A stretch of DNA of 64,000 nucleotides from Gemmatimonadota bacterium (GTDB lineage: Bacteria; Gemmatimonadota; Gemmatimonadetes; Gemmatimonadales; GWC2-71-9), in contig CP070716.1 in assembly GCA_020350425.1 (NCBI GenBank), positions 1,232,564 through 1,296,563 of the forward strand. Reading direction: 5' to 3'. Positions 11,939 to 26,486 of this stretch are shown here, piece by piece. Each line of letters opens with the position of its first letter. Position 1 is the stretch's first letter. A program made the translations under genes and the position numbers. The notes below the pieces were generated by a model, which saw only the letters and a program-made list of their open reading frames with translations, was not told the DNA's origin and ran no database searches.

Positions 11939-13021
11939 CTACGTCGGCGCCCGCCGGAACATCCACAGCCCGGTGACGCCGAACAGGATGTTGGGTACCC
12001 AGGCTGCGAGCGTCGGGGGTACCAGACCGCCCGAGCCGATGGTGCGGGAGAGCTGGACCAGTACCAGGAACACGATGGCGGTGCCGAGGGCCACCGCCAC
12101 GCCCCACGCGCCGCTCACTCGCGGGCCGCTGGCCACGAACGGAATGGCGAAGAACGCGATGATGATGCAGGTGACCGGGACGGCGATCTTCAGAGCCTGC
12201 TCCACTCGCAGGAGGCGTCCGTCGCCGCCCGACCGCTCTAGGGCATCCACGTACCGCCCCAACTCGGCGTAGCGCATCTCCTGGGGTTTCTTGGGTTCCA
12301 CCAGGAGCTCGGCGGGGCCCTCCACCAGGCTGCGCAGCCGCATCGAGTCGAACGCAAAGGCCACCTCGGTCGGTGCTCCGGTGATCACCCGCAGGCGGCC
12401 GTCGGCCAGCATCCAGCGAGCCTCGGTGGAATCCCAATGCGCGCGGCGCGCCTGCACGGCGAGCGTCGGATAGGCCGGGCCGGTGCCCTCCCGTTCCAGC
12501 ACCAGGTCCCGCATCTGGGAGCGCATGGCGTTGAGTTGCCGCACCTGGTAGACCCATCCCTCTTCGGCGCGGTACACGAAGTTGTAGCGGGCTGTCTGGG
12601 ACCGGCGCGGTTCCTCCTCCAGCAGCTCGAGTTGGCGGCGCGTGGCCGGCGGCGTGAGCTCACCGATGATCAGCCCCAGCCCGGCGGCCACGGTGGCCGC
12701 GAACAGCACCGGGAGCACCACCCGATGCATGCCGCGGCCGGACGCCTTGGCCGCCGTGAGCTCGGAATGGCGATTCATGTTTCCCACGCTGAACACCGTG
12801 GCGAACAGCACGGCCGCGGGGAGGATGAGAAAGATCCGGTCGGGTAGGCTGAAGAAGTACCCAAGCGCGATCGCGGTGGGTGCCAGGTCCTTGATGAGGT
12901 ACTCGTCCAGCTTCTCCGCGAGCTCGATGATGATGACGAATAGCGGGAGTCCCAGCGCCGCGAGCACGAAGATCTTCACCCACTCCTTCAGAAGGTATCG
13001 GTCCAGGATGCGCGGGATCAC
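11939..13021 (-). CDS. LptF/LptG-family LPS export permease (360 aa)
   Basis: GTG 13021 (VIPRILDRYLLKEW...) overlaps the upstream stop (GTGA). YjgP/YjgQ N-terminus and 6-TM layout. The 5' 237 codons of ORF 11939..13732 are off-frame over the neighbour. Confidence 0.75.
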   Translation of the reverse strand: MIPRILDRYLLKEWVKIFVLAALGLPLFVIIIELAEKLDEYLIKDLAPTAIALGYFFSLPDRIFLILPAAVLFATVFSVGNMNRHSELTAAKASGRGMHRVVLPVLFAATVAAGLGLIIGELTPPATRRQLELLEEEPRRSQTARYNFVYRAEEGWVYQVRQLNAMRSQMRDLVLEREGTGPAYPTLAVQARRAHWDSTEARWMLADGRLRVITGAPTEVAFAFDSMRLRSLVEGPAELLVEPKKPQEMRYAELGRYVDALERSGGDGRLLRVEQALKIAVPVTCIIIAFFAIPFVASGPRVSGAWGVAVALGTAIVFLVLVQLSRTIGSGGLVPPTLAAWVPNILFGVTGLWMFRRAPT

Positions 13022-14511
13022 GGCGCGCCCCGCTTCCTGAGTCGGCGCCACAGCCGCACCGGTAGCGGCGGGGGCGGGGTCGTCCCCTGGCGCTGTACCA
13101 ACCACAGGCCGCCGAGTCCGAGCGCTCCCATCAGGATGTTCGAGGCATACATGGCCACGAACGGGTGGACGACCAGCCGGTTGGCCAGGGACTCGCCGGC
13201 GATGAGCCCGACGTAGTACACTGCGAAGACCGCCATTCCGGCTCCCAGCACCAGGCCCATGCCGCCGCGGGGGAAGCGCAACGCCAGCGGCACGCCCACG
13301 AGCACGAACACGATGCACGCCAGCGCGATCGACCCCTTCTTGTGGAGCTCCACGAGGTAGACCGACTCGCGCGTGAGGGCGGTCTTGGAGCGGTCCCGCA
13401 GGAGCCGTATCTCGTTGGAGCGATCGCGCGGACGCACGCGGCGCACGACCGGAGCGGCCTCGTAGCCCTCGTCGATGCCCACGTCCGGGCGCCGCATGGC
13501 CGAGTCGCGCTGCGCTTCCTGCGCTTCGAGCTCGGTCGGCGTGATCCACGACTTGACCAGGGCCAGCGCCCGGCAGTAGAGGTTGCGGCGCGGGGGGGAG
13601 ATCGCGGTATCGACGGGAATCTCCGGGAGGCCCACCAGCGCGCGGAGGCCGTTGAGTTCGGCGCCGTCGGCCTGCCGCTCGAGGCGGAGCCGGTCGCGCC
13701 GCGCGTCGAGCACGACCTCCTCCAGCTGGCACACCCCCAGCTCGCGGTCGCCCCGGTAGTCGTCCGTCTCCCGGCGCACGAACTCGCTGCCCACTCCCCG
13801 GACGAGGATCAACTGGCGGGTGAAGTCGGTTTGCTGGAAGGTACGGGGGTCGTTCCGATCGAACTCGTGGATCGAGCCATCGTACAGGGTGAAGTACAGA
13901 TCCTCCTGATTGGGGGCAAAGGCGAGGTATCCACTATCGGCGTAGATCGTGCGGTTGCGCACCGCCTCCTCGAGGTTGTACAGGGTAACGTCGCGCAGCT
14001 GGTAGGTTGCCGGGTCGATGTGCGCCGTGCGCAGCATGACCCGCCCGCTCTGGACCTCGTTGATCACGTGCGGCTTGATGGAGAAGGTCGGCTTGGTGCG
14101 GTAGATGTCGGTCATCAAGCTGCGCAGCCGGTGATTGGTCCGGGGCAGGATCTGATCGTTGAACACGAAGGAGATCAGGGCCACGAGGGTGCCGGCGACG
14201 AGGAGCGGCCGCAGCAGCTGCCCGAGGGAGACGCCGCCGGCCCGCATGGCGGTCACCTCGCGGTCGCCCGACATAGTGCTCATCGTGTAGAGCACGGCCA
14301 CCAGCACGGACATCGAGAGGGTGATCGCGATGAGGAACGGGATGGTGAGCAGGAAGAACTCCAGGATCACCGACCAGGGGAGGCCCTTGCCCATCAAGTC
14401 GCCGAGCTTCCGCGCGATCTGGCGGATCAGCTCGAAGCACGTCAGCGCCGAGAGGGCGAAGAAGAAGGGCCGCGCGTGCTGCTTCAGCAGATACCTGGTC
14501 AGGATCCTCAT
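13018..14511 (-). CDS. LptF/LptG-family LPS export permease, enlarged (497 aa)
   Basis: MRILTRYLLKQHARPFFFAL... is a YjgP/YjgQ-type N-terminus. Long charged insertion in the periplasmic domain. Confidence 0.75.
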   Translation of the reverse strand: MRILTRYLLKQHARPFFFALSALTCFELIRQIARKLGDLMGKGLPWSVILEFFLLTIPFLIAITLSMSVLVAVLYTMSTMSGDREVTAMRAGGVSLGQLLRPLLVAGTLVALISFVFNDQILPRTNHRLRSLMTDIYRTKPTFSIKPHVINEVQSGRVMLRTAHIDPATYQLRDVTLYNLEEAVRNRTIYADSGYLAFAPNQEDLYFTLYDGSIHEFDRNDPRTFQQTDFTRQLILVRGVGSEFVRRETDDYRGDRELGVCQLEEVVLDARRDRLRLERQADGAELNGLRALVGLPEIPVDTAISPPRRNLYCRALALVKSWITPTELEAQEAQRDSAMRRPDVGIDEGYEAAPVVRRVRPRDRSNEIRLLRDRSKTALTRESVYLVELHKKGSIALACIVFVLVGVPLALRFPRGGMGLVLGAGMAVFAVYYVGLIAGESLANRLVVHPFVAMYASNILMGALGLGGLWLVQRQGTTPPPPLPVRLWRRLRKRGAP

Positions 14512-14605
14512 CGCACGCCGTAACTTACTTGCCTGTAATGATTTGAGCCGGCATTATATTGCCGATTCTCACCGCTAACAAGGTATACCCCGCTTTCAGG
14601 GCAAC

Positions 14606-17600
14606 GTGTCCCGCCGCTGCGCAGCGCTCGCACTGACGACCGCGATCCTCGTGGCGGGTCCCGTCGTGGCACAGGAGCCCGGCGCCCCGGCGCCGCGGCT
14701 GCGTATCCGGCTCTCGGAGGAGCCGCTCTCTCTGAGAAGATACGTTGCCCTCGAGCCCGGCGGGTGGCTGGGACCGAGCACGACCCCGGAGTTGGCGGGG
14801 CAACGGTGGGCCGCAGCGACGCGAGCGCTGCTCGCCCGCCGCCGCGATGCTCGGTACCAGGCGCGCCTGCTGGCAGCCCTGTCTCCTCCCGCGCCGGCTC
14901 CACGCGACACCGTACGCCGACGGATTCCGATTCCGCGGCCTGAGGAGATCGCCGAGCTCGAGGTGGAGGAGCCGGCGACCCTCGAAGCGTTGGAGCGCTA
15001 CGCCGATCTGGGGCTCGATCTCCAGTCACGCCTCGTGATGAAGTTCGACCGGCTGCGGAATGCGCGCTGCACCGCCACCGACGTCAACACCCCCGGCTCC
15101 GGGTGCCAGGACGGGTTTCCCACGCCGAGCTTCGATGAGGACTTCCGCGTGCTGGCCGGGGGGATCGTCGCCGATCGGTTCCACGTGAACGTGGACTTCG
15201 ATACGCAGCGCGAGTTCAGCGTCAACAACAACATCAACTTCTGGTATCAGGGCCTCGAAGACGAGATCCTGCGCCGAGTGGAAGTGGGCAACGTCACCTT
15301 CCGTGCCCCACCATTCCGGTTCATCACCGCCGCGATCCCGGCCAATTCGTTCGGTGTCCAGGCGGAGGCCCAACTCGGTCCGTTGGACGTGAGCACGATC
15401 TTCGCGCAGCAGAAGGGCTCGGCGGTGCGCACTCGCACCTTCCGCGTGGGGGACGCCACCACGCAGCCGGTGTCGTTCGAGGCGCGCGATATCGACTTCG
15501 AGAGTGGCCGCTTCTTCTTCGTGGTCAATCCGCGTGCGCTGCCCGGATACCCGGCGCTCGACGTGCTCGACATCGTGCCCGAGATCCTACCGGACACGCT
15601 GCGCCCCACCGCGGTGCGAGTCTACCGGCTGCGGGCCCAGGTAGGGCGCGACGAGGACAACCCCAACCTGGGCGGCATCGAGGCCGTCGCCTTGCGGAGC
15701 GACAGCCCGCAGCGCGTTGGCCCCTTCAGCTGGGAGCTGCTGGTCGAGGGCCGCGACTACTACCTGGATCCCTCCGGAGTGTGGTTCGCGTTGGCCAATC
15801 GGCTCGGCACCGACGACTTCCTCGCCGTCTCCTACACGCGGGCCTCGGGCGATACCGTGGGCACGTTCCCGGCGGTGAACGGGACGGGCGACACGCTCGA
15901 GCTGGTGTACGAGCCGCGCCGCGGCCCCGGCGTGCCCACCTACTTCCACGAGATGCGCAACGCATACCGGATCGGCGGGAGCGGGATCACCCGGAACACG
16001 ATTCGGCTCGCGATCGTGGTGAACCAGTCCGAGCAGCCGCTCGGGGGGAGCGGCACCTACCTGTCACGGCTGGGACTGGCGGCCGCCGTCGATCCGTCCA
16101 CCATCGACGAGTTCAACCGGGTCTTTCCCCGCACGCGCGATCCCAACAATGGGGAGCCGGTGCATGACTACTTCGTGGTGTTCCCCCACCTCACTCCGTT
16201 CGCCGACTCCACCGTGCTCGCCCCAGGGGACCGCAATGACTCGCTCTACCGCACCCCCACCTATCTGCTGGTGAGCGAAGCGCCCCCGCCGCTCTTTCAT
16301 CTCCGCCTCGCGTACGAGGCGAGCGGAGCCGGGGATCGCTCCAATCTGAGCCTGGGCGCGCTCCAGGTGCGCGAGGCGAGTGAGAAGCTGTTCATCGGGG
16401 AGCGGGAGCTCGTGCGGGGACGGGACTACGAGATCGATTATGAGCTGGGTCAGGTGCGCTTTCTCAGCCCGGACTCGCTCTTCTTCGGCCCCACCGAGGT
16501 GCGCGCCCAGTTCGAGGAGAACCAGCTGTTCGACTTCGCGCCCAAGACCATCTTTGGGCTCGCCAGCACCTACCACCTGGGCCCCGAGAGCCGCCTCTAC
16601 GGCATCGGGTTGTTCCAGCGCGACCGGACCAGCCTCACACGGCCCCAATTGGGGTTCGAGCCGCAGGCTGGGTTCATGGGCGGCCTGGGCGCCGAGCTGC
16701 AGTTCCGCGGCGAAGGGCTGACGCGGGTGCTGGATGCGCTGCCCCTGATCGAGACCAGCGTCCCCTCGCGCCTGAATGTCACCGGGGAAATCGCGGTGTC
16801 CAATCCGAACCCGAACAGCACCGGCATCGCGTACGTGGAGGACTTCCAGCAAGAGGCCGCCTTCAAGGTTCCGCTCGGGGAGCGGGAGTTTCAACTGGGA
16901 AGCACGCCGTCCTCGGGTCACGGCCTGCCGCCGAGCTATCTCGCAGGAGGGACCGACTTCTCCGACCAGGACGCCGTCCCGCTGGTGTGGCAGAACCTGG
17001 TACAGACGCCGGCCGGCGTGCGGGAGTTCCGGCCGCAGGAGATCGACAGCACCATCGTGCTCACCGGCACCGGCATTTCGATCGAGCCGACTCTGTGGCT
17101 CACCCTCAAGCCAGACACGGTGGGTGGCGCGCCCGATCCGATCACGGGGGCGCCCCGCTGGCTCCTGCCCCACACGCCGGGGCCCCGCTGGCGCAGCCTG
17201 ACGCAATCGTTCGGGTTCGGCTCGGGGGTGGGGGTCGACTTCTCCCGCTCGGAGTTCATGGAGTTCTGGGTGCTCGAGGACGCCGCGATGCAGGCCCGGC
17301 AGCAGAGCGCCGTGCTGGTGATCGATCTCGGCACGGTGTTCGAGGATGCGGCCCGTCCGGCGCCCACCTCGTTCCGTGTTCAGGGCAGCGACACCCTGTT
17401 CACGGGGCTCCAATTCGAGGGCGCCGGCGTACTCGACAGCGAACGCGATTCGCTCACGGCAGTGTACAACGCGCTCGGAGACGACGTCGGGATTCGGGGA
17501 GATCTCGTGGGCACGATCTTCGACGAGACGAGCGGAGCGACCGTGAGCGACCTCCCCTTGTGCAGCCTGGAGGACATCGCGGGCCTGCCCACCCTGCCCC

Positions 17601-20600
17601 TCGGCAGCCTCAGAGCCACTTGCACGAGGCGAAATCGTCGGCTCGACACCGAGGATCTGGACGGCGATAACCGGCTGGACGTTGCCGTCGGCACCACGAC
17701 GGAAGACTTCCTCCGATACACGTTCTCCATCGGGGACGCCCGCTACTTCGTGAGGGATGGGGTGACGCACTTCGACGAGCAGGGGCGCCCCATGACATGG
17801 CGGCTCTACCGTATCCCGCTGCGGATCGACTCGCTGCAGGTGGGCCAGCCCAACCTGCGGCAAATCGAGGCCCTGCGTCTCACGCTGGTCACGCCTGACG
17901 TGGGAGGGATCGAGGAGGAGTTCTGGATCACGCTCGCGCGGATGCGCTTCGTGGGAGCGCCGTGGGTCAAGCGCGCCGCCACGCCCATCGCGGGCATCTC
18001 GGGGAGCACGGGCGAGCTCCACGGCGAGGTCCGTGCGACCACGGTCAGCACCGAGGACGAGCAGCTCGGGTACGAGTCGCCCCCGGGGACCACCGATTCG
18101 CCGGAGGAGACCAGCCAGGCCTTGCAGTTCGGGGTCACGCAGGTGAACGAGAAGGCTCTGCGTTTGCTGGCGGAGGATCTCAGGGCCGGTGAGCGGGCGG
18201 AGGCGCTGGTGCGTTTCAGTGCCCAGGCTGACAGGAACTTCCTCGCATACCGGCGGCTGCGCGTTTGGGCGCGCGGCCGTGGGCCCGGATGGGCCGAAGG
18301 CGACCTCCAGTTCTTCGTCAAGATCGGCCAGAACGAGGACAACTTCTACATGTATCGGGCGCCGGCCCAGACCGGGAGCTGGGAGCCGGAAGTGGTCGTG
18401 GATCTGGAGCGGTGGCTCGAGCTCCGGGCGCAGATCGAGTCGGCATGGCTCGGCGGCGCGCCACCCGCCGGGGCGTCGGAGTGCGGCGGTGACTCGACCG
18501 CCTACGTGGCGTGCGACGGACCGTATCTCGTGCACGTGGGCGACCCCGGAGTCGCACCGCCCAACTTGGCGCGGGTGTCCGAAGTGGCGGCCGGGATGCT
18601 ACGCGTGCAGGAGACCGCCGCCCTAGGCACCGCGGAGTTGTGGGTGAACGACATCCGGCTGGACGACGTTGCGGGGGACGCAGGCATTGCGGCGGCCATC
18701 GACGTGCACCTCGCCGCCGCCGACGTCGCCGAGCTCGATTTCGGCTACTCGCTGCGGGACGACCGGTTCCGCCAGTTCGACCAGCGCCCCAGCTACGTGA
18801 CCGATGCAGCCACGCGCTTCGCGATGCTATTCCGTGTGGACAAGCTGCTGCCGCAGGCTTGGGGGTTGAGCGTGCCCGTCACGTTCCGCCACACCAAGAC
18901 CCGTGCCGACCCGTTCTTCTTGCAGAACACCGACGTGCGCGCCGATCGGCTCAGCGACCTCCGACGGCCGAAGGGCACGGTGACATCGTGGGATGTCACC
19001 GTGCGGCGCGCAAAGCGCGGCGAGACGACCATCGAGCGAACGCTCGTGGACCCGGTCACCGTCCAGGTCCGGGGAGACAAGGCGTCGGACGCGACGTCGT
19101 TCACGAGCGCACGGACCCGCAACGACGGCGTGCGGGTGGTCTACGACAACGTGCCCGGTCCCAGGACGGTGCAGGGAGCGCCAGGCTTCCTGATCAACCT
19201 CGTGAACTCGCTGCCGGACTGGATCAAGGAGAGTGAGTTCGGCAAGGCGCTGCGCAACTCCCGGCTGCGGTGGAATCCGTTCCGGCTGACCTACGCCTCG
19301 ACGTTCACCCACAACCGGACCGACCGCCTCACGTTCCGTGTTCCGGTGGAGCTGGAGAGCGACACGGCGCTGGCGCCGCTCCCGAGCGTCGTACACACGT
19401 GGCGCAACGAGCTCGGATTCGACTTCCGCCCCTACTCGTCGTTCGCGATCCGCGTGAACTGGTCGAGTACGCGCGATCTGCAGGACTACGGGGATACCAC
19501 GGAGGTCGGCCGGCTGCTGCAGCAGGAGCGCGGCACCATGTTTGGATGGGATATCGGGTTCGAGCGGTGGCACACGCTCACCACCGGCATCAACGTCGCG
19601 CCGGTGGTGAGCAGCTGGCTGCGCCCGCGCTTCGTGTTTTCGACGCGATACCACTTCACCCGCGACCCGAACCAGCGCGCACCGGTCGTGGCGGGCGACT
19701 CGACGCCCAAGCCCCCGGAGACGGTTGGCAACGCACGCCACGCCGAGTTCGGCGCGTCGCTCGACGTCGCTCGTCTGGTGCGAGGGCTCGCCGGCGATGC
19801 GGGCGTGCTGACCAAGGTCTTCGCGATTCTGCTGCCGGCCGACCTCACGCTTGCACGCGACCTGCGATCCACCTTCGACCGCGCCCAGTTCGACGCCGGC
19901 CTCGGGTACCGTCTGGCGCTGGGCGGGTTGGGCGCCTTCCGCTCGCAGGGGGGGGGACCTGCCACGGCGACGGGCGACCTCGAGAGCGTGATTCTCGCTG
20001 GCGGCCTGCGCCTCCCGCTCGGCGGCCTGTTCCGGTTGAGCTACCGCAACCTGGCCAACGCGGCGTGGTCGCGACGGGGCGAGGTGCAGACCCAGGTGGT
20101 GCAGCGCAGCAGGGAGTGGCCGTCGCTGAACTTCTCCTGGGCGTACAGTCCGTCGTCGGGTATCCGGCGGGTGATCTCCAGTGTCTCCGCTGGGCTGCAG
20201 TATCGCCTGATCCGCACGTCGAGCGTGCAGCCGCTTTCCGCACTCGGCGGGAGCGACAGCGTGGTGACCGAGAACAACTCCACATTCGTGACGCCGACGC
20301 TGACGCTGTCGTGGTCCCCGGGCATCACCACGGCGGTGCAGTATTCGAACTCCAAGACGGAGAGCGTCACCTCCGGCAACCGCACCGAGAGCGAGCGCAG
20401 CGCGTGGGGCGCGAGCGCGAACTTCGGGTGGAACCTTCCGAGGAGTCTCGTGCGGTCCGCCAATCGCGTCCAGACGACGATCGCGTTTAATTCCTCTACC
20501 CAGGCCGTTTGCCTCCTGCAAACCGGCGCGGTCGGCTGCCGCAGCGTGTCGGACAGCCGCCGGGATCAGCTGGACATCCGGCTGGATACGGGATTCACGC

Positions 20601-20728
20601 AGAGCCTGCGAGGGGGGATGACGTTCAGCTACGTGTTGACGGACCAGCGGCACACGTCGCAGACCCTGTCTCAGATGGTGTTCACGATCTACCTGGACAT
20701 CAACTTCGTGTCGGGCCAGGTCCGATGA
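14606..20728 (+). CDS. sprA: SprA-like giant outer-membrane protein (T9SS translocon family), 2040 aa
   Basis: Signal peptide ...AGPVVA|QEP. The block FHVNVDFDTQREFSVNNNINFWYQGLEDEILRRVEVGNVTFRAPPF...SFGVQAEAQLGPLDVSTIFAQQKG matches my memory of the SprA N-terminal family signature (YDT..F.F.N...L.Y.G.EDEI...E.GNV...LFG...QFG...Q.G). Beta-rich throughout. Confidence 0.65.
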   Translation: MSRRCAALALTTAILVAGPVVAQEPGAPAPRLRIRLSEEPLSLRRYVALEPGGWLGPSTTPELAGQRWAAATRALLARRRDARYQARLLAALSPPAPAPRDTVRRRIPIPRPEEIAELEVEEPATLEALERYADLGLDLQSRLVMKFDRLRNARCTATDVNTPGSGCQDGFPTPSFDEDFRVLAGGIVADRFHVNVDFDTQREFSVNNNINFWYQGLEDEILRRVEVGNVTFRAPPFRFITAAIPANSFGVQAEAQLGPLDVSTIFAQQKGSAVRTRTFRVGDATTQPVSFEARDIDFESGRFFFVVNPRALPGYPALDVLDIVPEILPDTLRPTAVRVYRLRAQVGRDEDNPNLGGIEAVALRSDSPQRVGPFSWELLVEGRDYYLDPSGVWFALANRLGTDDFLAVSYTRASGDTVGTFPAVNGTGDTLELVYEPRRGPGVPTYFHEMRNAYRIGGSGITRNTIRLAIVVNQSEQPLGGSGTYLSRLGLAAAVDPSTIDEFNRVFPRTRDPNNGEPVHDYFVVFPHLTPFADSTVLAPGDRNDSLYRTPTYLLVSEAPPPLFHLRLAYEASGAGDRSNLSLGALQVREASEKLFIGERELVRGRDYEIDYELGQVRFLSPDSLFFGPTEVRAQFEENQLFDFAPKTIFGLASTYHLGPESRLYGIGLFQRDRTSLTRPQLGFEPQAGFMGGLGAELQFRGEGLTRVLDALPLIETSVPSRLNVTGEIAVSNPNPNSTGIAYVEDFQQEAAFKVPLGEREFQLGSTPSSGHGLPPSYLAGGTDFSDQDAVPLVWQNLVQTPAGVREFRPQEIDSTIVLTGTGISIEPTLWLTLKPDTVGGAPDPITGAPRWLLPHTPGPRWRSLTQSFGFGSGVGVDFSRSEFMEFWVLEDAAMQARQQSAVLVIDLGTVFEDAARPAPTSFRVQGSDTLFTGLQFEGAGVLDSERDSLTAVYNALGDDVGIRGDLVGTIFDETSGATVSDLPLCSLEDIAGLPTLPLGSLRATCTRRNRRLDTEDLDGDNRLDVAVGTTTEDFLRYTFSIGDARYFVRDGVTHFDEQGRPMTWRLYRIPLRIDSLQVGQPNLRQIEALRLTLVTPDVGGIEEEFWITLARMRFVGAPWVKRAATPIAGISGSTGELHGEVRATTVSTEDEQLGYESPPGTTDSPEETSQALQFGVTQVNEKALRLLAEDLRAGERAEALVRFSAQADRNFLAYRRLRVWARGRGPGWAEGDLQFFVKIGQNEDNFYMYRAPAQTGSWEPEVVVDLERWLELRAQIESAWLGGAPPAGASECGGDSTAYVACDGPYLVHVGDPGVAPPNLARVSEVAAGMLRVQETAALGTAELWVNDIRLDDVAGDAGIAAAIDVHLAAADVAELDFGYSLRDDRFRQFDQRPSYVTDAATRFAMLFRVDKLLPQAWGLSVPVTFRHTKTRADPFFLQNTDVRADRLSDLRRPKGTVTSWDVTVRRAKRGETTIERTLVDPVTVQVRGDKASDATSFTSARTRNDGVRVVYDNVPGPRTVQGAPGFLINLVNSLPDWIKESEFGKALRNSRLRWNPFRLTYASTFTHNRTDRLTFRVPVELESDTALAPLPSVVHTWRNELGFDFRPYSSFAIRVNWSSTRDLQDYGDTTEVGRLLQQERGTMFGWDIGFERWHTLTTGINVAPVVSSWLRPRFVFSTRYHFTRDPNQRAPVVAGDSTPKPPETVGNARHAEFGASLDVARLVRGLAGDAGVLTKVFAILLPADLTLARDLRSTFDRAQFDAGLGYRLALGGLGAFRSQGGGPATATGDLESVILAGGLRLPLGGLFRLSYRNLANAAWSRRGEVQTQVVQRSREWPSLNFSWAYSPSSGIRRVISSVSAGLQYRLIRTSSVQPLSALGGSDSVVTENNSTFVTPTLTLSWSPGITTAVQYSNSKTESVTSGNRTESERSAWGASANFGWNLPRSLVRSANRVQTTIAFNSSTQAVCLLQTGAVGCRSVSDSRRDQLDIRLDTGFTQSLRGGMTFSYVLTDQRHTSQTLSQMVFTIYLDINFVSGQVR

Positions 20729-21612
20729 GGTGGATTACGGGGCTGATCCTGGTGGCCATCGGCTGTGGCGCCGGAGGCCGGGGGCCGCGCGAGTTCGACG
20801 GTGAAGCGGCACTGGGGTACGTGGAGACGCAGCTCGCCTTTGGGCCGCGGGTTCCCAACACCGAGGGGCATCGCCAAACGGGCGATTGGATCCTGGAGCA
20901 GCTCCGCCTGCGCGCCGATTCGGTGGAGGTCCAGGAGTTCACGCACGTCACGGTCGACGGTGACACCCTGCACCTGCGCAACTTCATCGGGCGGTTCCGA
21001 CCGGAGGTGAGCGAGCGCATCCTGTATCTCGCCCACTGGGATACCCGACCGCGGGCGGATCGCGACGCCAACCTGGGCCGCCAGCGCCTGCCGGTGCCGG
21101 GCGCCAACGACGGCGCCTCGGGCGTGGCCGTACTGCTGGGCGTGGCCGACGTGCTCGAGCGGCGTCCCTCGGACTTCGGCGTAGACCTCCTGTTCGTGGA
21201 CGGCGAGGACTACGGCGACTTTGCGCAGGGCGCGGATGTGCTCCTCGGCTCGCGGCACTACGCGGCCAGCGTCGACGCCGGTGCCTTTCCGCTGTACGCC
21301 GTCGTGTGGGACATGGTGGGAGACCGCGACCTGGAGATCTACCAGGAGGGCAACTCCGTCACTCGGGCTCCCGAGGTCGTGGACCGGGTCTGGAGTCGTG
21401 CTCGGGACCTGGGGTACAGCCGGGTTTTCCGGCCGTCGGTGGGGTACACGATGACTGACGATCACGTGCCGCTGCTGGAGGTGGGCATTCGCGCCATCGA
21501 CGTGATCGACTTCGACTACCCCCACTGGCATACTGCGGACGACACGCTCGACAAGGTGAGCGCGGCGTCGCTCCAAGTGGTGGGAGACGTCGCGGTAGCC
21601 CTGCTGCGCTAG
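20725..21612 (+). CDS. Glutaminyl-peptide cyclotransferase-like M28-fold lipoprotein
   Basis: ATG 20725 overlaps the sprA-like stop (ATGA). Lipobox LVAIGC. Motifs AHWDTRP, GANDGASGVAVLL, FVDGEDYG, VWDMVGD, MTDDHVPLL (DDH.P(F/L) as in animal/Bacteroidetes-type QC). Confidence 0.7.
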   Translation: MRWITGLILVAIGCGAGGRGPREFDGEAALGYVETQLAFGPRVPNTEGHRQTGDWILEQLRLRADSVEVQEFTHVTVDGDTLHLRNFIGRFRPEVSERILYLAHWDTRPRADRDANLGRQRLPVPGANDGASGVAVLLGVADVLERRPSDFGVDLLFVDGEDYGDFAQGADVLLGSRHYAASVDAGAFPLYAVVWDMVGDRDLEIYQEGNSVTRAPEVVDRVWSRARDLGYSRVFRPSVGYTMTDDHVPLLEVGIRAIDVIDFDYPHWHTADDTLDKVSAASLQVVGDVAVALLR

Positions 21613-21704: not shown

Positions 21705-22322
21705 GTGCTCTCCTCCGACGACCGCAAGGCAGCCTTGACGCTCTTGGGCTTGGCGGCGGCCGGCCTCCTGGTCCGGGCGCTTGCAGGTGGCGGCAGTCCC
21801 GCCGGGGCCGTGGCCTATCGGGAGGTGACCGCCGGGCGCCCCGAGCGGGACGCGGTAGCCGAGCAGGCGGCGCGGATGGCGCGCCCGTTGAGCCGCGGCG
21901 AGACGATCGACCCGGACCGTGCGCCCGCAGCGGAGCTCGCCCGATTGCCCCGCATCGGCCCGGGGCTCGCGGCACGCATCGTCGACGATCGGGAGGCAAA
22001 CGGCCCGTTCGGCTCTTTGGAGGAGCTGGATCGCGTGGTGGGTGTGGGGCCGGCCGTGCTCGACGCGGTGCGCCGTCACGTGGTCTTCTCGGCGCCGGCC
22101 GCACGCTCCGCGACGTCCCAAGTGCCCGAGATTGTGACGCTTAACACGGCTTCTGCCCGGCAGCTCGCTAGACTACCCGGCATCGGGCCGGCGCGAGCCA
22201 AGGCGATCGTTGAGGATCGACAACGCCATGGACCGTACCGGCGGCTGGACGAGCTTACGCGGGTGCAAGGTATTGGGCAGGCGACGGTGGAGCGCCTGCG
22301 GGGGCTGGTGCGCGTGCCTTGA
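21705..22322 (+). CDS. comEA: ComEA-like membrane-anchored DNA-binding protein with two tandem helix-hairpin-helix modules
   Basis: N-terminal TM (LTLLGLAAAGLLV). Two copies of L(A/P)RLPxIGPxxAxxIVxDRxxxGP(F/Y)xxLxEL.RV.G(V/I)G. The start codon is uncertain. Confidence 0.7.
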   Translation: MLSSDDRKAALTLLGLAAAGLLVRALAGGGSPAGAVAYREVTAGRPERDAVAEQAARMARPLSRGETIDPDRAPAAELARLPRIGPGLAARIVDDREANGPFGSLEELDRVVGVGPAVLDAVRRHVVFSAPAARSATSQVPEIVTLNTASARQLARLPGIGPARAKAIVEDRQRHGPYRRLDELTRVQGIGQATVERLRGLVRVP

Positions 22323-22346
22323 CACCCCTTGGGGTGGTCATACTTT
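22319..22346 (+). promoter_or_regulatory. Candidate sigma70-type promoter of pilBTC
   Basis: TTGACA (22319-22324), 16 nt, TACTTT (22341-22346). Lies 67 nt upstream of the pilB ATG. Confidence 0.35.
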
Positions 22347-22412
22347 TGACCGTTACTTTGTTGCGCCCAAAGGACTTGCAGTGATCTTCGACGTTTCCCA
22401 CCACGGCAACAT

Positions 22413-24119
22413 ATGACGACGGCCCCAGCGAGCACCGAGCGTCTCGGCGATCTGCTCATCCGCGAAGGGCTGATCACCCGCGAGCAGCTCCAGCAGGCCT
22501 TGGAGCAGCAGCAGGGATCGGGCATGCGGCTGGGCTACACCCTGGTCAAGCTCGGGATGGTGCAGGAGATCGAGATCACCAAGATGCTGGCCCGGCAGTA
22601 CCGGGTTCCGGCCGTCGATCTCTCCCGCTTCGAGGTCGACGAGAAGATCATCAAGCTGATTCCGAACGAGGTCGCCCTGCGGCACACCGTGCTGCCGCTG
22701 AAGCGCGAGGCCCGCACGCTCACCGTGGCGATGGCGGACCCGACCAACCACAGTGTCCTGGACGACCTCAAGTTCATCACGCGGTTCGACATCTTCCCGG
22801 TCATCGCGGGCGAGTACACGCTGCGCACCGCGATCGAGCGGTACTACGAGCAGACCGATGCGCAGCTCGAGTCCCTCCTCAAGGACATGGAGGCGGAAGA
22901 TCTCGAGATCGTCGAGGAGGAGGACGAGGAGGAGGGGAGCGCAATCCAGATCGCGGATGACGCCCCGGTCGTGAAGCTGATCAACGGCATTATGACCGAC
23001 GCCGTGAAGCGCGGCGCCAGTGACATCCATATCGAGCCGTTCGAGAAAGAGATCCGTGTGCGCTACCGGATCGACGGTTCGCTGCAGGAAGTCATGAAGC
23101 CTCCGGTGAAGTTGAAGGCCGCGCTCACGAGCCGCGTGAAGATCATGTCCAACCTGAACATCGCCGAGCGACGGGTGCCCCAGGACGGGCGGATCAAGAT
23201 GAAGATGGGGGATCGGGTGATCGACTTCCGCGTCTCCACCCTCCCCGTGATCTTCGGCGAGAAGATCGTGCTGCGAATCCTGGACAAGGGGAACCTGACC
23301 CTCGACCTGACGAAGTTCGGGTTCGAGCCCAAGGCCGAGAAGGACCTCATGCGCAACATCCTGAACCCGTACGGCATGGTGCTGGTCACCGGCCCGACGG
23401 GGTCGGGGAAGACCACGACGCTGTACTCTGCGTTGTCGCGCGTGAACAACATCGATGTGAATATCATGACCGCCGAGGACCCCGTGGAGTACAACATCCA
23501 CGGCATCAACCAGGTCCTCGTGCGCAATGAGATCGGGATGACGTTCGCGGCCGCCCTGAAGGCGTTTCTGCGGCAGGACCCGAACATCATCATGGTGGGA
23601 GAGATCCGCGATCTCGAGACCGGCAGTATCGCCATCAAGGCAGCGCTCACCGGCCACCTCGTACTCTCCACGCTGCACACCAACGACGCCTCGTCCACCA
23701 TTACCCGTATGATCGACATGGGGATCGAGCCCTTCAACGTGGCAAGCGCGGTCAACCTGATCGTGGCCCAGCGGCTCGTTCGGCGGATCTGTGGCAACTG
23801 TAAGGCAGAGTGCGAATACAGCGAGGAGGAGCTCGGAGCCCTCGGGATCGACGCCAAGCACGCGGGCGAGATCCAGCTATACAAGGGCGAGGGCTGCGAT
23901 ACCTGCGGCGGGACCGGCTACAAGGGGAGGCAGGGGATCTACGAAGTGATGGCGCTCTCTCCCGAGCTCCGCCGCATGATCCTCCGCGGCTCTTCATCGG
24001 ACGAGCTCAAGCAGACCGCGATCGAGGAGGGAATGTTGACGCTGCGCATGGACGGCATGGTGAAGCTCCAGCGGGGCGTCACGACACTTGAAGAGGTCGT
24101 CAAGGAAACCGCGGAGTAA
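22413..24119 (+). CDS. pilB: Type IV pilus extension ATPase PilB (GspE family) with MshEN-type N-domain
   Basis: Walker A GPTGSGKTT, Asp/His boxes, tetracysteine CGNC...CDTCGGTG, N-terminal tandem RLGxxL..G...L...L..Q motifs. Confidence 0.9.
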   Translation: MTTAPASTERLGDLLIREGLITREQLQQALEQQQGSGMRLGYTLVKLGMVQEIEITKMLARQYRVPAVDLSRFEVDEKIIKLIPNEVALRHTVLPLKREARTLTVAMADPTNHSVLDDLKFITRFDIFPVIAGEYTLRTAIERYYEQTDAQLESLLKDMEAEDLEIVEEEDEEEGSAIQIADDAPVVKLINGIMTDAVKRGASDIHIEPFEKEIRVRYRIDGSLQEVMKPPVKLKAALTSRVKIMSNLNIAERRVPQDGRIKMKMGDRVIDFRVSTLPVIFGEKIVLRILDKGNLTLDLTKFGFEPKAEKDLMRNILNPYGMVLVTGPTGSGKTTTLYSALSRVNNIDVNIMTAEDPVEYNIHGINQVLVRNEIGMTFAAALKAFLRQDPNIIMVGEIRDLETGSIAIKAALTGHLVLSTLHTNDASSTITRMIDMGIEPFNVASAVNLIVAQRLVRRICGNCKAECEYSEEELGALGIDAKHAGEIQLYKGEGCDTCGGTGYKGRQGIYEVMALSPELRRMILRGSSSDELKQTAIEEGMLTLRMDGMVKLQRGVTTLEEVVKETAE

Positions 24120-24122
24120 TCG

Positions 24123-25268
24123 ATGACGGCAGATCAAGGCAAGGGTGGGGATTCCTCGGTCAACCTCCGCGAGCTGCTGGAGGAAATGATCAAGCGCGAC
24201 GCTTCGGACCTGCATATCACGGCAGGTGAGCGTCCCAAGGTCCGGGTGGATGGTGAGATCACCAACTCGCATGTGGAACACGTTCTCACGCCCAAGGAGA
24301 CGCTCCAGATCGCCTATTCCGTGCTGACGGACAATCAGAAGAAGCGGTTCGAGAACGAAGACGAGCTCGACTTCTCCTTCGGTATCCAGAATCTCGCACG
24401 ATTCCGCGGCAACTGCTTCAAACAGCGCGGCTGTGTCTCGCTCGTCATCCGGCAGATTCCGTTCTCGATCAAGACCTTCGACGAGTTGGGTCTCCCACCG
24501 GCGTTGCGCAAGCTCGCCGACCGTCCCAGAGGACTGGTGCTCGTGACCGGCCCAACCGGGTCGGGTAAGTCGACGACGCTCGCCGCGATGATCGACAAGA
24601 TCAATCGCGAGCGACGGGGGCACATCATCACGATCGAGGATCCGATCGAGTTCATCCACCGGCACCAGGGATGCATCGTAAATCAGCGTGAGGTGGGGAC
24701 GGACACCAAGTCGTTCGGGAACGCGCTGAAGTATGCTTTGCGGCAGGATCCGGACATCGTGCTCATCGGCGAGATGCGCGACCTGGAGACGATTCAGGCG
24801 GCGCTGACGATCGCCGAGACCGGGCATCTGGCGTTCGCGACACTGCACACGAACTCGGCGGCCGAGACGATCAATCGAATCATCGATGTGTTTCCCTCCC
24901 ACCAACAGTCCCAGGTGCGGGCGCAGCTCGCCTTCGTGCTGGAAGGCGTGGTGACGCAGATCCTGCTCCAGCGGGCCGGTGGCAAGGGTCGCGTGATGGC
25001 CTGTGAGGTCATGGTGGCCACGCCGGCAATTCGTGCCCTGATCCGGGACGACAAGGTGCACCAGATCTACTCGGCCATGCAGGCCGGCAAGAAGCATGGC
25101 ATGCAGACGCTGAACGACTCGCTGTATCAGGAATACATGGGCCGGCATGTGACGCTCGAGGAGTGTTTGCGGGTGGCACCGGACCAGAACGAGTTCCTGC
25201 GGATGATTGGGGAGGACGTCCCCGAGGCGGAAGGGGCGGGGGCGCGGGCCGCGGCGGCCCGGCGGTAA
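24123..25268 (+). CDS. pilT: Twitching-motility retraction ATPase PilT
   Basis: GPTGSGKSTT, TIEDPIEF, AHLAFATLHTNSA-like core, ~380 aa, immediately after pilB. Confidence 0.9.
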   Translation: MTADQGKGGDSSVNLRELLEEMIKRDASDLHITAGERPKVRVDGEITNSHVEHVLTPKETLQIAYSVLTDNQKKRFENEDELDFSFGIQNLARFRGNCFKQRGCVSLVIRQIPFSIKTFDELGLPPALRKLADRPRGLVLVTGPTGSGKSTTLAAMIDKINRERRGHIITIEDPIEFIHRHQGCIVNQREVGTDTKSFGNALKYALRQDPDIVLIGEMRDLETIQAALTIAETGHLAFATLHTNSAAETINRIIDVFPSHQQSQVRAQLAFVLEGVVTQILLQRAGGKGRVMACEVMVATPAIRALIRDDKVHQIYSAMQAGKKHGMQTLNDSLYQEYMGRHVTLEECLRVAPDQNEFLRMIGEDVPEAEGAGARAAAARR

Positions 25269-25295
25269 CCGCGGCGGACATAGAGGAGATCCACT

Positions 25296-26486
25296 ATGCC
25301 AGTATTCGAGTATACCGCACGGACAGCGACGGGACAGGAAACCACGGGGACGGTTGACCTCCCCTCACGGGAGGACGTCGTCAAGCACCTTCGGCAGAAC
25401 CGGATGATGGTGATCCGGGTCCGCGAGCAGCAGAAGAGGAAGAAGGGCGGCAGGGTCCCGACCCGTGACGTCGTCATCTTCACTCGGCAGTTCGCCACGA
25501 TGATCAACTCCGGACTGCCCCTGGTGCAGGCCCTCGACATCCTGGCCCAACAGACCGAGAACAAGGTGCTTGCGGGGGTCACCCGCCAGGTCGTGTACGA
25601 CGTCGAAAGCGGCCACACCCTGGCCGACGCGTTGGACAAGCACAAGAACGCCTTCAGCCAACTCTTCGTGAACATGGTGGCTGCGGGTGAGGCCGGCGGT
25701 ATCCTCGACACCATTCTCCTCCGGCTGGCGACGTTCCTGGAAAAGAACGACGCGATCATACGGAAGGTGAAGGGCGCGATGATCTACCCTGCCGTGATCT
25801 TCTCGGTGGCGATCATTGCGGTGGTGGTGCTGCTCGTGTTCGTGATCCCGACCTTCGAGAGCATGTTCGCGTCGGTGAACCTGGAGCTGCCGCTTCCCAC
25901 GCGAGTGGTGATCGGGATGAGCCAGCTGTTGCAGGGCTTCTGGTGGCTGTTCCTGCTGTCGATAATCGCATTGTTCTTCCTGACCAAGCAGTACTATGCA
26001 ACGGAGGGCGGCCGGCTGAACATCGACAGAGCGCTGCTGAGTATGCCGGTGCTGGGCGATTTGCTGCGCAAGGCTGCGGTATCGCGCTTCACGCGCACGC
26101 TGAGCACTCTGTTGTCGTCGGGCGTCTCGATCCTCGAGGGCCTGGAGATCACGGCGCGGACCGCCGGTAATCAGGTGATCCACAACGCCGTGATGGAGTC
26201 ACGGGGCTCGATCGCCGGTGGTGAGACGATCGCCTCGCCGCTGGAGAAGTCGGGAGTGTTCCCGCCGATGGTGACCTCGATGATCGCGGTGGGTGAGGCC
26301 ACTGGTGGCTTGGACGAGATGCTCAGCAAGATCGCCGACTTCTACGACGACGAGGTGGACGCGGCCGTGAGCGCGCTCCTCTCGTTGATGGAGCCGGTCA
26401 TGATCGTCGTCCTCGGCGTGGTCGTGGGCGGCATGATCGTGGCGATGTACCTGCCGATCTTCGACATGATCAACGCGGTACAATAA
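25296..26486 (+). CDS. pilC: Type IV pilus platform protein PilC (GspF family)
   Basis: Two GspF repeats (FTRQFATMINSGLPL.., FTRTLSTLLSSGVSI..), 3 TM, 396 aa. Confidence 0.9.
   Translation: MPVFEYTARTATGQETTGTVDLPSREDVVKHLRQNRMMVIRVREQQKRKKGGRVPTRDVVIFTRQFATMINSGLPLVQALDILAQQTENKVLAGVTRQVVYDVESGHTLADALDKHKNAFSQLFVNMVAAGEAGGILDTILLRLATFLEKNDAIIRKVKGAMIYPAVIFSVAIIAVVVLLVFVIPTFESMFASVNLELPLPTRVVIGMSQLLQGFWWLFLLSIIALFFLTKQYYATEGGRLNIDRALLSMPVLGDLLRKAAVSRFTRTLSTLLSSGVSILEGLEITARTAGNQVIHNAVMESRGSIAGGETIASPLEKSGVFPPMVTSMIAVGEATGGLDEMLSKIADFYDDEVDAAVSALLSLMEPVMIVVLGVVVGGMIVAMYLPIFDMINAVQ

Follow-up and report, generated by a model that had tools for sequence, protein, structure and literature searches.

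A predicted type II glutaminyl cyclase gene overlaps the end of a sprA-like gene in a conserved gene block of Gemmatimonadota

A 64,000-nucleotide stretch of a Gemmatimonadota genome (assembly GCA_020350425.1, contig CP070716.1, positions 1,232,564 to 1,296,563 of the forward strand; hereafter the window) carries, on its plus strand, a gene for a predicted type II (M28-fold) glutaminyl cyclase (QC) joined to a sprA/sov-like gene for a giant outer-membrane beta-barrel of the type IX secretion system (T9SS) translocon family. The QC open reading frame (ORF) spans 20725..21612, encodes 295 amino acids (aa) and ends with TAG at 21610-21612. Its beginning lies within the end of the upstream ORF (14606-20728): positions 20720-20729 read gtccgATGAg, with the QC ATG at 20725-20727 and the TGA of sprA at 20726-20728, an overlap of 4 nt (ATGA, 20725..20728). 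This overlap, pointed out in an earlier note made from the letters of the window, is borne out by direct reading of the sequence. A start at the upstream TTG at 20509, which would yield a 367-aa protein, was ruled out since the lipoprotein signal peptide starts at the ATG in all orthologues. The sprA product (2040 aa, 14606..20728) matches NCBIfam model TIGR04189 with an E value of 5e-155 and a score of 518 bits, where the cut-off is 200, and Pfam SprA_N with 3.4e-11; the SprA-like character attributed to it in the note is therefore sound. Its translated signal peptide ends in VVA and is followed directly by QEPG (14606..14674, Gln23 codon at 14672-14674), and this Gln is a predicted cyclase substrate. 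The same Ala-Gln site is found in nearly all SprA orthologues with a readable N-terminus, the one from a genome labelled KSB1 included.

The QC product opens with a lipoprotein signal peptide, MRWITGLILVAIGC (20725..20766), whose lipobox LVAIGC occupies aa 9-14 (20749-20766). The Cys14 codon is at 20764-20766; the next residue (+2) is Gly, and the lipobox Cys stands at the same position in 40 of 40 orthologues inspected. Five further motifs follow on the plus strand. GANDGASG (aa 126-133, 21100..21123) contains Asp129, a predicted zinc ligand equivalent to Asp149 of the Porphyromonas gingivalis enzyme (PgQC), and then Gly130; DGEDYG (aa 159-164, 21199..21216) contains the predicted catalytic Glu161 and the predicted ligand Asp162 (PgQC Asp183); DMVG (aa 196-199, 21310..21321) contributes Asp196, and DDHVPLL (aa 245-251, 21457..21477) Asp245, Asp246 and His247; HWHT (21523..21534) supplies Trp268 (PgQC Trp298) and the predicted ligand His269 (PgQC His299). 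Conservation was judged on two alignments, of 12 and 28 sequences. Asp129-Gly130, Glu161-Asp162, Asp196, Asp245-Asp246-His247 and His269 are invariant in them, and Trp268 is kept in most homologues, with His in a few. We take Glu161, Asp196 and Asp245/Asp246 to correspond to Glu201, Asp248 and Asp305 of human QC, the Asp of DMVG being presumably the equivalent of Asp248. All the motifs quoted in the earlier note in favor of a lipoprotein with an M28 fold and QC-like character are present, and homology and structural model agree with that assignment.

Some database matches would suit an ordinary di-zinc M28 aminopeptidase, which is what automatic annotation often makes of such a protein. Pfam yields only Peptidase_M28 (4.7e-29); the NCBIfam profile search returns no fitting model for the product, only weak aminopeptidase and DapE matches below threshold; and several relatives in the PDB were deposited as "leucine aminopeptidase". 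The closest full-length phmmer matches in the PDB are nevertheless the QCs of Tannerella forsythia (6qro, 4.5e-57) and P. gingivalis (6qql, 7.5e-53; also 7cje), with three gut-Bacteroidales entries deposited as aminopeptidases placed among the best. E values against the characterized QCs of T. forsythia, P. gingivalis and Bacteroides thetaiotaomicron range from 1e-57 to 1e-52, whereas true M28 aminopeptidases score only about 1e-8, 50 orders of magnitude poorer. An AlphaFold2 model of the protein (predicted local distance difference test score, 94.9) was compared with the PDB by Foldseek: among the top 50, every match is a QC or a structural-genomics entry since re-annotated as one, and the Bacteroidota QCs, which come out best, superpose with template modelling (TM) scores of 0.88-0.90 and root-mean-square deviations of 1.5-2.2 A.

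The deposited names carry little weight against these matches, as 3tc8 and 4fuu have been re-annotated as single-zinc QCs and 3gux, which has no bound zinc, is treated as a QC (Taudte et al. 2021, PMC7948796). The hallmarks given there for bacteroidal QCs are the ligands Asp149, Asp183 and His299, with Asp183 specific to this group, together with Trp298 and a Gly following Asp149, a position at which aminopeptidases carry Asn or Asp (PMC7948796). The window's protein has Glu161-Asp162 instead of Glu-Glu, its second zinc ligand being Asp where animal QCs and aminopeptidases have Glu; Asp129-Gly130 instead of Asp-Asn or Asp-Asp; and a Trp preceding the His ligand. Gly130, seen here as a residue in the sequence, is a trait tied to a trans Asp-Gly peptide and to the loss of the second zinc site. 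Homology and model together confirm the product of 20725-21612 as a predicted lipoprotein and M28-fold type II QC, not an aminopeptidase, and to the latter identity we would grant hardly any chance. The protein is a further member of the already known bacterial type II QC family. Genes of this kind are likely named M28 peptidases in annotations; no NCBIfam model captures them.

Compared with the Bacteroidota type II QCs (TfQC, 6QRO; PgQC, PG2157, 6QQL/7CJE; BtQC, 4FUU/7D1D; PdQC, 3TC8), the protein has the same fold and length at 35-38% identity and shares with them the Asp/Asp/His ligands, the Asp-Gly turn, the catalytic Glu and the Trp-His motif. With the PgQC type it also has in common the lipoprotein signal peptide, the Gly after Cys and a genome offering a large pool of substrates with Gln at position +1. 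It differs in a shorter loop before Trp-His, in the absence of the insertion that bears Phe294 in PgQC, and in coming from another phylum, with its function read from the sequence. Two M28-type QCs from outside Bacteroidota, those of Fimbriiglobus ruber (7D1B) and of an Acidobacteriales bacterium (7D18), are more distant (29-30% identity; Foldseek TM scores 0.86 and 0.79), and we know of no link to sprA or to the Q-rule described for either. Gene context differs as well: the present gene overlaps the sprA stop, whereas PgQC heads the PG2157-2159 operon (PMC10653852).

To follow the gene pair across the phylum, QC and SprA match coordinates were compared manually in 108 Gemmatimonadota genomes and junctions were checked on the DNA. 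Both genes are present in 86 genomes, and in 67 of these QC lies directly 3' of sprA on the same strand. The two are non-adjacent in 13 genomes (families f7 and f8) and separated by an opposite-strand TonB-dependent receptor gene in 2, and contig ends leave adjacency ambiguous in 4. An apparent SprA remnant beside the QC gene of one genome (G079) proved to be merely a contig end, and this genome was counted as adjacent. Adjacency spans four families of the organism's own class and two families of other classes. Among 27 orthologous junctions, 17 show the 4-nt overlap (CG ATG A) and 3 a 1-base overlap; gaps of 11-29 nt occur in 5, and of 53 and 116 nt in the last two. With one of the two overlaps shared by 20 of 27 junctions, the arrangement cannot be put down to chance in a single genome. 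Two disrupted arrangements were seen at individual loci. In one genus the gene between sprA and QC encodes, on the opposite strand, a TonB-dependent receptor with CarboxypepD_reg, Plug and barrel domains (L031 2105-4471 in G027; L032 in G103). In a Gemmatimonadaceae metagenome-assembled genome (MAG), QC (plus strand) and sprA (minus strand) lie tail to tail (L050 2001-7457), by inversion or through an assembly artefact.

The pair extends beyond Gemmatimonadota. With lptG placed divergently upstream, sprA-QC is also found in two MAGs labelled Eisenbacteria, in one labelled KSB1 and in two without a name; a MAG labelled Ignavibacteria has sprA-QC-comEA, its lptG region lying outside coverage (all labels are the submitters'). 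The adjacency, which the earlier note had proposed to look for in other genomes, is hence not unique to this one, being present in 67 of 86 Gemmatimonadota and in other phyla of the Fibrobacteres-Chlorobi-Bacteroidetes (FCB) group. In Bacteroidota it was found in 0 of 26 genomes, these being the ones with a type II QC, all with SprA too, among 71 sampled. On the QC tree the sequences from Gemmatimonadota fall into a single clade with strong support (99/99), and the Bacteroidales sequences do likewise; the clades fit with vertical descent within phyla. Our literature search found no published description of an overlapping sprA-QC operon, nor of the larger block with divergent lptF-lptG, in keeping with the note, whose author model knew of no such operon.

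In the window the pair sits in a conserved block, defined by synteny comparison, that consists of lptF-lptG on the minus strand and sprA-QC-comEA-pilB-pilT on the plus strand. The permease genes lptF and lptG (11939..14511; Pfam LptF_LptG, 1.4e-78 and 3.2e-66) diverge from sprA. A comEA-like helix-hairpin-helix gene (21705..22322; Pfam HHH_3, 1.9e-36) begins 92 nt downstream of QC, and pilB, pilT and pilC (22413..26486; T2SSE, 4.5e-144 and 3.4e-50; T2SSF, 5.8e-66) form the downstream end. The sole terminator-like hairpin between sprA and pilB, a consensus match only, is at 22333..22354 on the plus strand. From sprA to the end of comEA, a consensus scan, weak for this phylum, revealed no promoter-like or terminator-like site. 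Within window 13018-14606, where lptG and sprA diverge, the scan gave the region's only sigma-70-like match in their spacer of about 95 nt, on the minus strand at 14581-14553. The arrangement of lptG divergent from sprA is kept into other phyla.

Gene order of this kind could be simply inherited, with no present selective value, the QC gene having expression signals of its own and the overlap being incidental compaction. Genomes without sprA do express QC, putatively, from an lptG-QC spacer of 50-330 nt, and the order is broken with both genes kept in families f7 and f8, as well as by the TonB-receptor insertion in one genus and by the apparent inversion in L050. Yet at least two classes keep the pair in most of their families, and other phyla have it too; the conservation concerns the stop/start overlap and not mere order; and the scan, with the weakness noted, detected no promoter-like site within the 3' end of sprA. 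We regard inherited order as a minority possibility, to be kept in mind but improbable.

Drug development against periodontal pathogens targets the essential cyclase of the Q-rule. In Bacteroidetes the rule shows in many exported proteins, which have an A-x-A site followed by Gln, and in the presence of one periplasmic QC (PMC5837995, PMC10653852). It has been called exclusive to Bacteroidetes (PMC10653852), although Ignavibacterium, at 77%, is named among its outliers (Bochtler et al. 2018, PMC5837995). To look for a similar signal here, ORFs were chosen by codon-position GC, those N-termini were retained that combine a hydrophobic core with a charged n-region, lipoproteins were removed, and a site conforming to the (-3,-1) rule close to where the core ends, followed by Gln, was scored. 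Such a site is present here in 41% of signal-peptide-like N-termini (131 of 321), a share that comes from a noisy set and is not directly comparable with the published SignalP-based 71% (PMC5837995, PMC10653852); 0.95 Mb of Escherichia coli K-12 run through the same pipeline gives 10% (12 of 118; Fisher p = 1.3e-10). An unsupervised expectation-maximization (EM) analysis of rule-conforming sites recovered A-x-A followed by Gln, with a frequency of 0.37 for Gln at +1. The genome thus shows a Q-rule-like signal resembling that of Bacteroidetes. The true Gln(+1) share among signal peptidase I substrates is higher than 41%, because the scored set includes membrane anchors. Judging from the sequences, pyroglutamate capping as published for Bacteroidetes very probably works in this organism too; a Q-rule in Gemmatimonadota was not found in the literature.

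Three other procedures were dropped. A statistic on the first polar residue after the core failed to set this genome apart from 150 kb of E. coli, since AQA c-regions there, cleaved after the second Ala, mimic a cleaved Ala-Gln site; unconstrained EM locked onto the hydrophobic core; and Bacteroidales loci (135 kb), meant as a positive control, held too few signal peptides (n = 18).

The question of whether QC is tied to the pore was approached through losses. Whole-genome searches with the family model and with the window's own protein found no SprA in 12 relatives (families f1 and f2); in all 6 whose QC locus was examined, QC adjoins lptG and is followed by comEA-pilB. The same layout without sprA recurs in 15 species of a separate collection, and this shared arrangement suggests that sprA alone was cleanly lost. 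Loci with divergent lptFG and QC-comEA-pilBT but no sprA were seen at L034-L039, L046, L051, L055, L056, L061, L062, L064 and L066, and further at L068, L071, L083, L092, L101 and L107. The sprA gene has been lost repeatedly or early in several Gemmatimonadota genera. The converse also occurs. An unlinked type I (beta-propeller) QC, PF05096, is present in six Gemmatimonadota without type II (G095, G092, G098, G107, G063 and G087), and three holders of type II (G000, G090 and G106) have no type I; of 11 genomes, 9 thus have one type in place of the other, and neither was found in two incomplete ones (G102 and G061). In G092, which has type I only, divergent lptFG and sprA-comEA-pilT are kept, and some 250 nt separate sprA from comEA (L143, G092:C1:4395001-4412000): the type II gene is cleanly lost from this block. 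In G092, 19 of 69 signal-peptide-like N-termini (27.5%) have a rule site followed by Gln. We found no report in the literature of type I/type II QC replacement within Gemmatimonadota.

The SprA/Sov translocon of Flavobacterium johnsoniae comprises SprA with PorV, Plug and a peptidyl-prolyl isomerase. To our knowledge, no QC is a SprA partner. The upstream gene of the window is of the same family as F. johnsoniae SprA (TIGR04189), and searches for T9SS partners covered G000, G007 and 13 other genomes. In contrast to the F. johnsoniae system, neither PorV (PF19572) nor the C-terminal domain (CTD) of T9SS cargo (TIGR04183) has a match in the organism's own genome or in its 97%-complete genus-mate G007; the own genome is a single 2.87-Mb contig with 22,700 N, 75% complete, which makes absence calls there weak. 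Weak PorV or CTD matches appeared only in 3-4 other relatives (G077, G078, G088, G033), all sprA-positive. The GldM model TIGR03517 had no match anywhere, controls included, and hence was uninformative. The SprA gene of the window looks orphaned of canonical T9SS partners, and its product may not work as a canonical T9SS pore.

These results bear on the idea that QC is a dedicated SprA/T9SS accessory, made in fixed ratio with the pore and capping SprA or cargo in transit, with the operon as a mechanistic link. The idea draws on the 4-nt overlap kept over many genera, on the recurrence of the pair in MAGs labelled Eisenbacteria, KSB1 and Ignavibacteria, on the Gln that nearly always begins mature SprA orthologues, and on the co-occurrence of T9SS and Q-rule across phyla (PMC5837995). 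It sits poorly with the 12 relatives without sprA and the QC left in place beside lptG wherever examined, with the unlinked type I QC of sprA-positive relatives devoid of type II, with the lack of adjacency in all 26 Bacteroidota having both genes, with Gln(+1) on about 130 proteins of this genome rather than a few, with PorV and CTD being unmatched in this genome, and with the finding that in P. gingivalis pyroglutamate exerts no control over T9SS secretion (PMC5837995). We consider a dedicated accessory unlikely. As QC occurs without sprA, sprA without type II QC, and PorV and CTD are unmatched in this genome, the link between QC and SprA amounts to no more than co-expression of the enzyme with a single large substrate. 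The earlier note had proposed that coupling would link the maturation of cargo or outer-membrane proteins with translocon expression; the gene overlap stands, while a functional tie of the cyclase to the pore is weakened by the independent losses and the missing PorV and CTD matches. In our reading, QC serves the phylum as its general enzyme for pyroglutamate formation and is co-expressed with sprA; it is no dedicated secretion accessory.

The explanation we favor, and hold to be quite probable, is accordingly a type II, M28-fold, single-zinc QC that acts as a general Q-rule enzyme, co-expressed with sprA and having no function specific to the pore. By analogy with its homologues, the protein would be exported by Sec, lipidated at Cys14 and exposed on the periplasmic side, probably of the inner membrane; Gly at +2/+3 has been proposed to hold P. 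gingivalis lipoproteins in that membrane (PMC10653852). There it would convert Gln(+1), exposed by signal peptidase I on exported proteins, to pyroglutamate with release of ammonia, using one zinc held by Asp129, Asp162 and His269, and Glu161 as acid/base. A large share of the organism's exported proteins, SprA included, would serve as substrates of the enzyme. The gene would be transcribed together with sprA and, because its start overlaps the sprA stop, is probably translated by ribosomes finishing sprA; this coupling would set the QC expression level within an old, conserved envelope block of divergent lptFG and sprA-QC-comEA-pilBT.

Several points speak against this explanation or qualify it. 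Retention of the protein in the inner membrane is extrapolated from a single species, P. gingivalis. The Gln-cyclase activity and single zinc of the Gemmatimonadota enzyme are predicted from homologues, and co-transcription with sprA is inferred from gene layout. The share of 41% comes from a crude heuristic of our own applied to ORFs, with membrane anchors included, and is not a true Q-value. Finally, a strict 4-nt overlap maintained over many genera could mean more than expression convenience.

In a further scenario, divergent lptFG and sprA-QC would be an ancestral envelope-biogenesis module of the FCB group, in which barrel and capping became fixed together and stay mechanistically linked in non-Bacteroidota, with Gemmatimonadota SprA working without canonical PorV, GldKLMN or CTD and Bacteroidota having dispersed the module later. 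If this were true, QC might, for example, work on SprA or on its clients while the outer membrane is assembled. We rate such a scenario as unlikely, and the general enzyme co-expressed with sprA as the better account.

Under the general-enzyme explanation, the same enzyme type and the strong Gln(+1) signal in a Gemmatimonadota genome, along with the type I/type II replacement across the phylum, suggest that pyroglutamate capping is an older and wider trait of the FCB group. Through the conserved, overlapping sprA-QC pair, the Q-rule and the T9SS translocon family, earlier tied by co-occurrence only, become physically linked in the genome. Bochtler et al. noted this co-occurrence and rejected a mechanistic link (PMC5837995); the independent losses of sprA or QC likewise caution against a mechanistic reading, and our data agree with these authors, yet add the genomic link. 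Type II QC homologues with 42-46% identity, away from any sprA, are also present in MAGs labelled Armatimonadota, Poribacteria and Anaerolineales (L080, L098, L102, L114, L115 and L119).

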